This document shows positions 28,053 to 59,056 of a stretch of DNA of 64,000 nucleotides, one piece after another. Both the position numbers and the translations under genes were made by a program. The DNA comes from Escherichia coli (GTDB lineage Bacteria > Pseudomonadota > Gammaproteobacteria > Enterobacterales > Enterobacteriaceae), in NCBI RefSeq assembly GCF_024502345.1, contig NZ_JALDNN010000001.1, one strand, 5' to 3'. The notes beneath the pieces were generated by a model that saw only the letters and a program-made list of their open reading frames with translations, did not search any database and was not told the origin of the DNA. How positions within the stretch are numbered: position 1 is the stretch's first letter; each line of letters begins with the position of its first letter.

Positions 28053-28068
28053 TGGTGCGATAATAGGA
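28053..28068 (+). repeat. Degenerate direct repeat of the thrW 3' end; putative distal att site of the thrW island
   Basis: TGGTGCGATAATAGGA versus TGGTGCCGATAATAGGA at 58981-58997 (one-base deletion), same orientation; lies ~380 bp from the ykfI-like gene end. Confidence 0.55.
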
Positions 28069-28249
28069 ACATAACACACCACATATAACCATTGATAAAC
28101 ATACATATTTTCTTGTTTCATCTTTATAAATGCCCCCTTTTGTGCCCCCGCCTTGGTTTTCATACGACTCGATGAGCCTTTCATCGAGTCGTTAATCTCA
28201 CCAATTTCTTCACAGACCGTGCAAACCTTCTCAGCTCTTTAAGCCCCCC

Positions 28250-28618
28250 TCACTGACGCGATCGGCTAAGAACAATATTACTTACTTCCCGATAAGAACA
28301 ACTGTTCATTAATCCGCATGCTTTCCTGGCATGAAGGATATCTGTCACGGTCAGATATGGCGCTTGTTCCTGTGAGGAAAATCCACTGCGATCGATACGG
28401 ACTAACTCATACTTCTCCACCAGAAAGTTGATAGCATTAGCCAGGGTGATACCGGCATCGATATGTTCCTGTATGACGGTTTCATCACAGAAAGGTGTAT
28501 CGTTTAGCGTCAGGCCATAATGCTGTTCCAGCAGACGACTAAGTAACATTTGCCAGATAGTCACGGGCGATAGGCATGGCTTCGCCGCCCGCATATTTTT
28601 TGCAGGTTGAAATTTCAT
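28250..28618 (-). CDS. Type IV toxin, CbtA/YpjF family (second, diverged copy)
   Basis: ...[67 protein letters not shown]... Confidence 0.8.
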
Positions 28619-28638
28619 TTTTTCTCTCGTGAAAGTAA

Positions 28639-28956
28639 TTAACGTTGAGTGGGATAAACGGCGATGTATACGTAGCCGCAGCTGCCAAGGGTATCGGCTT
28701 CGCAGGTAAAACCGTCGTGGTACAGGGTGACGCTGTGGGCATGACGAGGATTCAGTTCACCGGAGGTCAGCATCAATTCCATCTGGCTGATAAAGTGCGG
28801 GAAAGTTTCATCCAGTTTCCGGCATTCGGCGTCACTGAATTGACCGGTGTTGCTGGCCCGGTCAGCCAGATAATGCAGCCGGTTCCCTTCTTGCACAAGG
28901 CGGGCTCCCAGGCGCGGCGTGATATCCCGCTGCAGGCCCCATGTGATGTTACTCAT
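28639..28956 (-). CDS. Type IV antitoxin, CbeA/YfjZ family (second copy)
   Basis: [42 protein letters not shown]...; paralog of 26992-27309. Confidence 0.8.
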
Positions 28957-28975
28957 TGATAAACCTCTTTTATTT

Positions 28976-55956: not shown

Positions 55957-57322
55957 TTAGATAACACCCTTATAAGGAACATGTACTCATCTAAAATGCT
56001 GTTACCGGATTATTATACCTAAAACAATGAATGCTGTGTATTATGAAATGTGATATAAGTCAATTAGTTACATATAAAAACCAACTCACATCCAAAAGGA
56101 TAGTATTTCGAGGTTTGTAGCATCATTAAATGTGAACTTATTTATCGCCCCCTCAAGTTAACTAATAAATAAGTTATAATTTACATATACTTCTGGAATT
56201 TAGAAACCTTATATCTAATAGTTGAGTAAGTTAATAATCAACATGAGTGTGATTCATAAAAAAAATAATTATTATTTTCAGCCCCTCCATTATGGAGGAG
56301 CAATAATAGTATAGTTTTCCTGTATTCCTAACGATCCAGTTAGGCTTAGAGAAATCTAATTATGAAGCACTCCTGAGAGCAACCCTTCCAACTTTATCAA
56401 TATAATCCGCATACCACTGCATCATCTCTCTCCTGCCTTCCAAATACAGCGCATGGTTGTACGTCCCGCGAATCGCATTCTTATCGACATGCGCAAGCTG
56501 GGTTTCAATCCATGCGGTATTGAACCCTTCCTCATGCAAAATCGTACTCATCGTGTGGCGGAAACCATGCCCCGTTACCTTCCCCGTGTACCCAATCCGC
56601 TTAAACACCTGATTAATACTCGCTTCGCTCATTGTTTTGCGGGGATCATTCCTCCCAGGAAACACCAGAGGATATTGCCCAGACATCACTTTGAGCTGCT
56701 GTACGATCTCCAGCGCTTGGGTAGAGAGGGGCACCAGGTGAGGCCGTTTCATCTTCATGCGCTCTGCAGGTATTTCCCACACCGCTTTTTCAAGATCAAA
56801 CTCACTCCAGAAAGCACCTCGAAGCTCACCGGTGCGAACCCCCGTAAGGATCAGCAAACGTGCGGCAAGAACAACCAGCGGGCTGCCTGTATAGCCAGAA
56901 AGAGCTTTAAAGAAATCTGGTAACTCCTCAACGGTAAGGAAGGGATAATGCTTCGATTCATGCCCTGACATCGCGCTGGTTAGATCCGCAGCCGGATTGT
57001 ATTCCGCACGACCGGTAACTATGGCGTAGCGAAAGACTTCGCTGCAGCGCTGGCGAACTTTCTTGGCCTTCTCTGTCGCACCACGGCTTTCCATTCGACG
57101 CAGTACATTCAACAGAACAAGAGGCTTAATTTCATTGACTGGCTGCTGACCGATATAGGGAAAAATATCTTTATTTAAAGCTTCGATAATGTCCGATGCA
57201 TACCCTTCTGACCATCTGCTCACCTTCGTACCGTGCCACTCAAGCGCCACAGACTGGAACGTATTATGATCTTACCCAGCAATAGTGGACACGCGGCTAA
57301 GTGAGTAAACTCTCAGTCAGAG

Positions 57323-57631
57323 GTGACTCACATGACAAAAACAGTATCAACCAGTAAAAAACCCCGTAAACAGCATTCGCCTGAATTTCGCAGTGAAGCC
57401 CTGAAGCTTGCTGAACGCATCGGTGTTACTGCCGCAGCCCGTGAACTCAGCCTGTATGAATCACAGCTCTACAACTGGCGCAGTAAACAGCAAAATCAGC
57501 AGACGTCTTCTGAACGTGAACTGGAGATGTCTACCGAGATTGCACGTCTCAAACGCCAGCTGGCAGAACGGGATGAAGAGCTGGCTATCCTCCAAAAGGC
57601 CGCGACATACTTCGCGAAGCGCCTGAAATGA
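57323..57631 (+). CDS. insE: IS3 OrfA (InsE)
   Basis: [50 protein letters not shown]... Confidence 0.93.
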
Positions 57632-58494
57632 AGTATGTCTTTATTGAAAAACATCAGGCTGAGTTCAGCATCAAAGCAATGTGCCGCGTGCTCCGGGTGG
57701 CCCGCAGCGGCTGGTATACGTGGTGTCAGCGGCGGACAAGGATAAGCACGCGTCAGCAGTTCCGCCAACACTGCGACAGCGTTGTCCTCGCGGCTTTTAC
57801 CCGGTCAAAACAGCGTTACGGTGCCCCACGCCTGACGGATGAACTGCGTGCTCAGGGTTACCCCTTTAACGTAAAAACCGTGGCGGCAAGCCTGCGCCGT
57901 CAGGGACTGAGGGCAAAGGCCTCCCGGAAGTTCAGCCCGGTCAGCTACCGCGCACACGGCCTGCCTGTGTCAGAAAATCTGTTGGAGCAGGATTTTTACG
58001 CCAGTGGCCCGAACCAGAAGTGGGCAGGAGACATCACGTACTTACGTACAGATGAAGGCTGGCTGTATCTGGCAGTGGTCATTGACCTGTGGTCACGTGC
58101 CGTTATTGGCTGGTCAATGTCGCCACGCATGACGGCGCAACTGGCCTGCGATGCCCTGCAGATGGCGCTGTGGCGGCGTAAGAGGCCCCGGAACGTTATC
58201 GTTCACACGGACCGTGGAGGCCAGTACTGTTCAGCAGATTATCAGGCGCAACTGAAGCGGCATAATCTGCGTGGAAGTATGAGCGCAAAAGGTTGCTGCT
58301 ACGATAATGCCTGCGTGGAAAGCTTCTTTCATTCGCTGAAAGTGGAATGTATCCATGGAGAACACTTTATCAGCCGGGAAATAATGCGGGCAACGGTATT
58401 TAATTATATCGAATGTGATTACAATCGGTGGCGGCGGCACAGTTGGTGTGGCGGCCTCAGTCCGGAACAATTTGAAAACCAGAACCTCGCTTAG
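57628..58494 (+). CDS. insF: IS3 OrfB (InsF) DDE transposase
   Basis: [36 protein letters not shown]...; overlaps insE in the arrangement typical of IS3 programmed frameshifting. Confidence 0.93.
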
Positions 58495-58980
58495 GTCTGT
58501 GTCCATATTACGTGGGTAGGATCATTATTGAGCTGCACATCACGAACCAGCTTTTCTTCTTTCTTGGCAAACGATGGATCGATACCCTCGGCCAGCTTTT
58601 TCTTGGCTTCATCGCGTAGTGCCCTCGCTTGAGCAAGGGACACTGCCGGATAAACGCCAAAAGCCATACGCTTCTCTTTTCCATTGAAGCGATATTTCAT
58701 TCGCCAGTATCGAGAACCAGAGGGAACGACTTCAAGATACAAACCAGCACCATCTGCCAGCTTATAGGCTTTCTCTCTGGGTTTAGCTGCATCTACCTGT
58801 CGCGCATTTAGCTTCATTGGGGGCATCTCCCTGGACCGAACACAGAATGCCCCCACTTATGCCCCCAACTGTAACTTGATTCCGGTTGAGTCCAGTTGAT
58901 AACAGGAGATAAAATACGGGCTAGAAACCGCAGTATACGGGCTTTTAGTTGATTTCGGTAGACTTGGGAAGAGTTTGAAA

Positions 58981-59056
58981 TGGTGCCGATAATAGGAGTC
59001 GAACCTACGACCTTCGCATTACGAATGCGCTGCTCTACCAACTGAGCTATATCGGC
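58981..59056 (-). tRNA. thrW: tRNA-Thr (thrW), island integration site
   Basis: Reverse complement reads GCCGATATAGCTCAGTTGGTAGAGCAGCGCATTCGTAATGCGAAGGTCGTAGGTTCGACTCCTATTATCGGCACCA, with CCA end. Confidence 0.93.

Follow-up and report, generated by a model that had tools for sequence, protein, structure and literature searches.

How an island of 30.9 kb came to lie between an intact tRNA gene, thrW, and the element CP4-6, which in K-12 adjoins that same gene directly, is the question raised by a stretch of Escherichia coli DNA of 64,000 nucleotides (RefSeq assembly GCF_024502345.1, contig NZ_JALDNN010000001.1), hereafter called the window. We hold it very probable that an island resembling CP4-57 integrated into the 3′ end of thrW beside a resident CP4-6, and was later damaged by insertion sequences (IS). 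Tandem accretion by means of a P4-like (CP4-57-like) tyrosine integrase is well supported, since the island is found solitary in strain PSJ-29, and strain Z226-5 has the same tandem. The insertion of an island into thrW is an ordinary, well-understood type of event which leaves current understanding unchallenged; mildly new is solely the conserved imperfect core of the island attachment site (attP) and its bearing on the position of the crossover.

The target gene, encoding tRNA-Thr(CGU), is located at 58981-59056 on the minus strand and is intact, as ARAGORN and Rfam (tRNA, 71.8 bits) agree. It was the sole tRNA called by ARAGORN in the window, and the Rfam scan of the window found no other RNA. 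The 3′ end of the gene is present twice:

58981-58997, no strand assigned: attL core, the last 17 nt of thrW, TGGTGCCGATAATAGGA on the plus strand
28053-28068, no strand assigned: attR core, TGGTG-CGATAATAGGA on the plus strand, a one-base-deleted copy of the thrW 3′ end, located from the K-12 alignment, the edit-distance scan and relatives of the island

Both cores are preceded by AA (58979-58997 and 28051-28068), and one C of the CC pair is absent from the distal copy. An edit-distance scan for the thrW 17-mer gave exactly these two sites in the window; a scan allowing mismatches only failed to detect the distal copy, the difference being an indel. The first-pass annotation had reported the thrW end recurring at 28053-28068 minus one base, and this is exact to the base in both the edit-distance scan and the alignment with K-12.

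In that alignment, window positions 62927-58979 correspond to the phoE-proB-proA-thrW region of K-12 MG1655 to 2 nt beyond the tRNA (99.3 % identity), and positions 28068-24779 to the last 17 nt of K-12 thrW followed by CP4-6 from ykfI to ykfB (3291 bp, 99.8 % identity). The two alignments are colinear and overlap by 19 nt in K-12, corresponding to a duplication of 17(16) + 2 nt, and in comparison with K-12 the window contains an exact insertion of 30.9 kb between the two copies of the thrW end. Such an insertion together with the duplicated 3′ end is the signature of site-specific integration. The repeat is just 16-17 nt long and imperfect, which could be taken to mean that it arose by chance and that the true boundary lies elsewhere, but only 0.007 matches to the 17-mer at an edit distance of at most 1 are expected per 64 kb window (simulated with the same first-order composition as the real one), and the breakpoints are exact in K-12, PSJ-29 and hundreds of genomes. 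Chance similarity is thereby refuted, and we assign it next to no probability.

The junction was searched for in 5426 complete E. coli genomes at an identity of at least 99 %, which gave 447 records. Among the matches listed, the homology on the CP4-6 side ends at window positions 28068-28078 in genomes with CP4-6 only, with thrW next to it, and the feature at that end, where annotated, is a tRNA-Thr. The whole junction was spanned only by Z226-5, Z226-6 (99.9 %) and CAVP773 (92.9 %), whose island is another one of the family. The end of the island at attR, hereafter the toxin-side end, is present in 52 E. coli genomes. In PSJ-29 the same island (99.8 % identity) is solitary between thrW and yagP′/paoD, the native chromosomal flank that lies beyond CP4-6 in K-12; yagP′/paoD also adjoins the toxin-side end in JX2, B19374 and SE11. 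The neighbour is yagU in SMS-3-5 and a prophage integrase in ET490, and in EcPF5 a P4-like thrW island adjoins a second P4-like island, the vat island. Found solitary, beside CP4-6, beside a prophage or beside another P4-like island, the island is an independent module. The comparison of thrW loci across E. coli genomes thus placed the island boundaries exactly where the first-pass annotation had set them. A synthetic attP query, composed of the integrase arm, the deleted core and the toxin arm, had no match covering at least 80 % of it in the 5426 genomes, and its partial matches exposed the tandem junction of EcPF5.

Beyond attR lies the outer element, which had been described as a CP4-6-like remnant:

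24779-28052, plus strand: CP4-6 remnant with ykfB, ykfF, yafX, ykfG, ykfH, yafW and ykfI (27330-27671), and the 381-bp flank that is proximal to thrW in K-12
24174-24770: IS5 fragment truncating the CP4-6 remnant on its left

The outer cassette is present as described, and the element is K-12 CP4-6 itself (99.8 % identity), cut by IS5 at about 24.8 kb. The distance from the end of the ykfI stop codon (27671) to the repeat at 28053 is 381 bp, and the gap between thrW and ykfI in K-12, given in the earlier description as about 380 bp, is also 381 bp. The junction of CP4-6 with the core is the thrW junction of K-12 base for base, save the one-base deletion in the core. The toxin-antitoxin/RadC cassettes of the two elements (26339-27595 and 28353-29611) face each other across attR as an inverted repeat of 1.26 kb with 81 % identity. 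An inverted att remnant downstream of ykfI, which would mean a flipped end of a P4-like island, was sought in the window and none was found.

The order of arrival can be read from the other end of CP4-6. In K-12 an intact 49-nt copy of thrW, extending from the anticodon stem to CCA, is present beside intF and is followed by the native flank (locus L002, 38207-38255); this flank is the one that adjoins attR in PSJ-29. With a copy of 49 nt by intF as against a block of 17 nt for the island, thrW serves two integrase systems at different sublocations, and an element of the IntF type could not have used the 16-nt attR. An attR unusable by IntF, a junction identical to that of K-12 save the deleted base, and an island beside the intact tRNA all indicate that CP4-6 came first and the island second. 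In Z226-5 the intF end of CP4-6 has been lost to an IS1-associated rearrangement, and the window ends before that region.

The reverse order, with the P4-like island first and CP4-6 later, or a joining mediated by IS instead of integration, would suit a region as IS-rich and rearranged as this one, with mhp genes, a heat-resistance locus and IS debris inside CP4-6. Both are very unlikely in our estimate: the 16-nt attR does not have the 49-nt thrW block into the anticodon stem-loop that CP4-6 uses with IntF, the CP4-6/core junction is that of K-12, no IS is present at either end of the island, both ends being clean att arms, and the element nearest to thrW, where a later arrival at an intact tRNA is expected, is the P4-like one.

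Three further observations concern these elements. The module of the island integrase and the Olokun genes, described below, is found with 99.9 % identity in ET881 (locus L004, 12161-14442), ET729, ET826 and 2018-05-2CC, followed by exactly 49 nt of the 3′ part of thrW and then by unrelated DNA and ycgV; no tRNA gene is present in the vicinity. Possibly an element with a 49-nt thrW repeat, such as CP4-6 has, was once located between thrW and the island in an array that has since been rearranged. Inside the CP4-6 remnant, window positions 9500-24000 contain the locus of heat resistance (transmissible locus of stress tolerance), with a GC content of 0.60-0.68, 99.8 % identity to Z226-5, and genes for sHSP20, ClpK, an FtsH-like protein, sHSP-GI, YfdX1/2, HdeD-GI, Trx-GI, KefB-GI, PsiE-GI, HtpX and a DegP-like protease. 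In positions 1-9000, mhpD-mhpC-mhpB and a truncated mhpA adjoin IS30 and IS911 identical to those of K-12 CP4-6, with fragments of ISEc52 and IS256 coming next. The surroundings of the mhp genes are not those found in K-12, and relative to the ykf cassette the IS30 segment is inverted.

The one-base deletion in attR had been taken for degeneration of the repeat. Decay does not explain it, the same deletion being common to many unrelated island lineages, flanks and genera. The deleted core TGGTG-CGATAATAGGA followed by AC is found at the toxin-side end in the window, Z226-5, CAVP773, PSJ-29, JX2, B19374, SE11, ET490 and EcPF5, that is in 9 of 11 sampled E. coli islands, and islands carrying it are mutually only 83-87 % identical. 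SMS-3-5 and ECCNB12-2 have TGGTGCCGATAAGAGGA instead. Outside the E. coli islands with the deleted core, four flanks were found: CP4-6, yagP/pao, a prophage integrase and the integrase arm of the vat island. When one genome per species was scanned for the exact pattern, 12 Enterobacteriaceae records with very different island arms proved to contain the deleted core, the genera including Citrobacter, Pseudocitrobacter, Lelliottia, Enterobacter, Cedecea, Phytobacter and Leclercia. A metagenome scan accepting either the deleted or the intact core gave at least 80 loci, and the figures refer to the 80 listed: 70 had the deleted core, 5 had an intact CC core by island-type arms and 5 were unrelated. 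Dozens of different island arms were represented. On eight of the listed metagenome contigs, the core being deleted in six and intact in two, the CP4-6 flank was joined to at least seven different islands, so tandems of a P4-like island and CP4-6 have formed repeatedly.

Because the deletion follows the island arm whatever the outside flank, it is part of attP. Because attR carries the deletion and the tRNA is always intact, strand exchange is placed 3′ of the GG/G position, in CACCA and the adjoining TT. CACCATT is the only block common to attL, attR and the tandem junctions, and the bases of the T-loop are neither common to attR and thrW nor conserved among the islands. The crossover would accordingly lie within CACCA/TT, at the very end of thrW. 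We lean, with some reserve, towards the more general reading that P4-like integrases specific for thrW have a conserved one-base-deleted attP core and exchange strands only in the last ~7 nt (CACCA/TT). The P4 integrase subfamily presumably falls into the "asymmetric 3′ end" class of sublocations. Exchange in CACCA/TT fits that class of tRNA integration as it is described in a preprint (bioRxiv 10.1101/2020.11.02.365908).

What was displaced inward would then be the CP4-6 flank with no more than the final ~5 nt of the former thrW, the 16-mer appearing to be mostly derived from the attP of the island. The first-pass proposal that a newer island entered thrW and pushed the old att copy inward is hence retained as to the later arrival and the boundaries, and corrected in that the whole old copy was not displaced.

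It might instead be held that the distal 16-mer is bacterial DNA, left over in mutated form from the original 3′ end of thrW, with a crossover on the T-loop side and one C lost after integration. A displaced fragment is the standard scheme for tRNA islands in the Islander paper (PMC4383910), the attB of Klebsiella P4-like integrases is said, in bioRxiv 10.1101/2020.11.02.365908, to start in the T-loop, and the intact core is kept at 5 of the 80 listed metagenome loci. We nevertheless regard this as improbable: the same deletion accompanies dozens of unrelated arms, has four or more different flanks outside it and occurs in no fewer than 12 species, which makes recurrent identical decay implausible, the T-loop bases show neither the sharing nor the conservation that such a crossover calls for, and a deletion that blocked excision could not have spread so widely among islands.

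On the preferred reading, with the deletion borne by the island, the history of the locus would be the following. An island of ~28 kb, similar to CP4-57, would have entered the 3′ end of thrW with CP4-6 already directly downstream. Integration would have left the intact tRNA beside the integrase (attL) and shifted the CP4-6 junction 30.9 kb inward, behind the 16-nt core (attR). The island attP, predicted as ...GAGTTTGAAATGGTG-CGATAATAGGAACATAAC..., would have contributed the core deletion, strand exchange taking place near the end of the tRNA gene, with the overlap to be sought across TCCTATTATCGGCACCATT. Five IS insertions and three deletions would then have taken the island to its present 30.9 kb.

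Several points weigh against parts of this account. The crossover position is a deduction, and no excision product or empty attB was seen for the window strain. The five listed metagenome loci noted above keep an intact core next to island arms, and one such arm (L054) matches an arm that has the deleted core at another locus (L100). Either a polymorphic attP or an exchange point that is not fixed may account for this; the rare variants with an intact core might stem from exchange that now and then took place beyond the indel. As to the lineage in which integration occurred, a 59 kb block with the heat-resistance locus, the CP4-6 remnant, the island and thrW (1-59250) is 99.8-99.9 % identical to Z226-5, whereas the adjacent proA-proB-phoE-crl region (59250-64000) differs from Z226-5 by 1.15 % (63 SNPs (single-nucleotide polymorphisms), starting inside proA). 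This contrast suggests that the block was swapped between lineages by homologous recombination, and the array may have arrived ready-made in this way and not have been integrated in this lineage.

The integrase, the excision regulator and the attachment-site arms are located as follows (TSD, target-site duplication):

56360-58817, minus strand: P4-like (CP4-57 IntA-like) tyrosine integrase gene, int, split by IS3 into an N-terminal part (58525-58817) and a C-terminal part (56360-57266)
57267-58524, plus strand: IS3, 1258 bp, inside int, TSD TTA
34410-35815, plus strand: alpA, 68 amino acids, AlpA-family regulator, broken after codon 7 by IS5
34432-35626: IS5 in alpA, TSD TTAA
58818-58980, no strand assigned: integrase-side att arm (P′), with two TGCCCCC motifs 12 bp apart (58848-58854 and 58860-58866)
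28069-28249, no strand assigned: toxin-side att arm (P), with two TGCCCCC motifs 12 bp apart (28131-28137 and 28143-28149)

The int gene is encoded beside the thrW 3′ end and reads away from the tRNA gene. Its intact orthologue in Z226-5, of 398 amino acids, contains the domains Arm-DNA-bind_3 (PF13356), Phage_int_M (PF22022) and Phage_integrase (PF00589), and has 40 % amino acid sequence identity with IntA of K-12 CP4-57 over the full length; the island integrase is barely related to IntF of CP4-6. The assignment of a P4-type integrase beside thrW thus agrees with the domain set and the similarity to IntA, but in the window the gene is broken by IS3. Excision of the IS5 in silico from alpA gave a protein exactly equal to AlpA of Z226-5. 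AlpA of CP4-57 is the activator of excision, and by analogy the same role would be expected here. Since int and alpA are both split, by IS3 and IS5, the island has probably lost the capability of excision in this strain.

The TGCCCCC pair of the integrase-side arm precedes the int start codon by 31-50 bp, and an inverted copy of the motif is present at 58819; this arm adjoins the deleted core in tandem or attP-like junctions. On the toxin side the pair is located 63-81 bp inside attR, in an arm conserved among relatives of the island. The 12-bp phasing is the same at both ends, and (A/G)CCCCC(A/T)AA motifs are found at a similar distance from the core in other genera. Judged by their sequence and spacing, the pairs are candidate arm-type sites for Int, and the pair on the integrase side offers a possible route to autoregulation of int.

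An IS-free copy of the island in Z226-5, of 28.1 kb and with ~99.9 % identity (~32 SNPs), defines the original island content. From thrW its order is int (398 amino acids), OloA, OloB, a 240-amino-acid protein, a SIR2 protein of 1210 amino acids, arsC/arsB′ remnants, proteins of 840, 481 and 281 amino acids, a WYL regulator, a Gp2-family protein, AlpA, a 303-amino-acid protein, GTPase, DUF932, WYL, Ag43, antirestriction protein, RadC, DUF987, YeeU and CbtA. Compared with this copy, the window has five IS insertions (IS3, two IS903-like, one of the IS110 family and IS5) and three deletions, and the lengths balance: 30,945 bp less 5,954 bp of IS and TSDs plus 3,129 bp of deletions gives ~28.1 kb. 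The backbone and the terminal cassette in the window comprise:

45486-45900, minus strand: arsC′/arsB′ remnant, 240 bp shorter than in Z226-5, 83 % identity to CP4-57 yfjU/yfjV
37105-37983, plus strand: WYL-domain regulator
36185-36799, plus strand: Inovirus Gp2-family protein, a backbone gene, named from the RefSeq annotation of the Z226-5 orthologue
30647-34018, minus strand: backbone block, 83.6 % identity to CP4-57 yfjP-yfjQ, with a 304-amino-acid hypothetical protein (33104-34018), GTPase (32150-33013), DUF932 (31233-32060) and truncated WYL (30647-31012)
29697-30587, minus strand: fusion open reading frame of 296 amino acids, an Ag43 beta-domain piece with the C-terminal ~90 amino acids of an antirestriction protein (KlcA/ArdB-type)
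28250-29688, minus strand: RadC (29206-29688), DUF987 (28976-29197), YeeU-family antitoxin (28639-28956) and CbtA-family toxin (28250-28618)

Of the three deletions, those of 655 and 2234 bp account for the loss of most of Ag43, of the C-terminal end of the second WYL protein and of the N-terminal ~64 codons of the antirestriction gene; they thereby produced the Ag43′-antirestriction′ fusion, in which the Ag43 piece corresponds to positions 630-842 of the Ag43 model. The third (240 bp) is in the ars remnant. The terminal cassette, which the first-pass annotation read as KlcA-RadC-YeeT-CbeA-CbtA, is present, except that its antirestriction gene is truncated and fused to the Ag43 fragment; from RadC to CbtA it has 86 % identity to CP4-57 lfgA-ypjF. 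No P4 alpha primase-helicase and no sid, psu, delta or cos was annotated in the Z226-5 copy, and none was found in NCBIfam and PADLOC scans of the cargo. Since no P4 genes for replication or capsid hijacking are annotated, the element is classed as a CP4-57-like island and not as a P4 satellite.

Between int and the backbone lies the cargo, which from its sequence is assigned as anti-phage defence genes:

51966-55956, minus strand: Olokun (PADLOC), with OloA (53383-55956, 857 amino acids) and OloB (51966-53480), both intact
51153-51881, minus strand: 242-amino-acid protein 3′ of OloB, no family match
46296-50994, plus strand: Dsr1-like SIR2 gene, split by an IS903-like copy, 1210 amino acids in Z226-5
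49334-50390, minus strand: IS903-like element of the IS5 family, 1057 bp, in the Dsr1-like gene, 9-bp TSD CCTTATCCC
38018-45296, plus strand: PDC-M09 candidate defence operon (PADLOC)
38018-38064, 39131-39487 and 40850-41292, plus strand: PDC-M09A, in three pieces after two IS insertions
41292-42737, plus strand: PDC-M09B
42774-45296, plus strand: 840-amino-acid membrane protein
38065-39121, plus strand: IS903-like element in PDC-M09A, 100 % identical to the copy at 49334-50390, own 9-bp TSD TCTCAAAAG
39488-40849, minus strand: IS110-family element, 1362 bp, in PDC-M09A

The adjacent oloA and oloB genes matched their PADLOC models over nearly the full length (E = 2.9e-77 and 4.8e-58, respectively), and Olokun, the sole defence system of the cargo still intact, looks functional as far as its reading frames tell. 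The 242-amino-acid gene accompanies OloAB in ET881 too and may be a third Olokun-associated gene; neither its product nor the 304-amino-acid protein had a match in Pfam, NCBIfam or PADLOC. The SIR2 protein matched Dsr1 in PADLOC (E = 7.8e-74) and is named "SIR2 family protein" in RefSeq; against the NCBIfam Dsr1 model it scored 323 bits, compared with an equivalog cut-off of 1400, with only residues 401-1206 covered. PDC-M09A (E = 2.4e-120, Z226-5 copy) and PDC-M09B (E = 1.7e-213) belong to what PADLOC lists as a candidate system only, and the 840-amino-acid protein gave only weak matches in Pfam, NCBIfam and PADLOC. The cargo had been described as defence-like, and PADLOC bears this out with Olokun, Dsr1-like and PDC-M09 genes, of which the Dsr1-like gene and PDC-M09A are split by IS. 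The two identical IS903-like copies are inverted and 10 kb apart, a ready substrate for inverting the PDC-M09/Dsr1 segment. An inversion of the 11 kb between them was considered and rejected, the gene order being that of Z226-5 and each copy having its own 9-bp TSD.

In this strain Olokun alone among the three defence systems looks functional, and the island is probably fixed in place. At thrW, which serves integrase systems of two unrelated types, IntF (49-nt block) and P4 (17-nt block), the elements stack in a predictable order. An imperfect distal repeat is the normal form in this island family, and repeat-finders requiring perfect tRNA fragments will therefore misplace or miss such islands. 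Should the deleted attP core be as general as we read it, these thrW islands would never supply a working tRNA 3′ end, and the imperfect distal copy would be a heritable signature of the island for arrival order and crossover position in tandem arrays.

Among known systems, CP4-57 of K-12, a cryptic P4-like element at ssrA with excision controlled by IntA and AlpA, has the same architecture and module order as the island. Common to both are a tRNA-type gene, int, alpA, defence cargo, GTPase (yfjP), DUF932 (yfjQ), WYL (yfjR), an ars remnant, antirestriction, RadC, DUF987, antitoxin, toxin and attR, with 71-86 % identity between the backbone DNAs. They differ in target (ssrA and thrW) and in cargo, which is AbpAB and RnlAB in CP4-57 and Olokun, Dsr1-like and PDC-M09 in the island, and in the window int and alpA are disrupted by IS. 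CP4-6 of K-12 has the same thrW junction and 381-bp spacing as the outer element, of which the window copy is an IS5-cut remnant carrying the heat-resistance locus. With the new island CP4-6 has the type of toxin cassette in common, but it has a 49-nt thrW copy beside IntF (466 amino acids), and its toxin cassette points toward thrW, unlike that of CP4-57-type islands.

Integration into thrW, a listed hotspot (PMC7545054), and tandem accretion of islands at tRNA genes, as at the Klebsiella asn genes (PMC4891358), are established. Defence islands borne by mobile genetic elements at E. coli hotspots, including Olokun and DSR1, have been catalogued by Hochhauser et al. (2023, PMC10121019), whose main text does not mention thrW. 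Those islands are likewise associated with an integrase and carry several defence systems, two of three being inactivated by IS in the present case. Tandem arrays at tRNA genes, such as those at Klebsiella asn and the vat pathogenicity island at thrW in extraintestinal pathogenic E. coli, similarly consist of serial elements with an internal att copy and the newest element beside the intact tRNA, and in EcPF5 two P4-like thrW islands meet at a junction of this kind. The array in the window is unlike these in that its partners have integrases of different families and use different sublocations of one tRNA gene.

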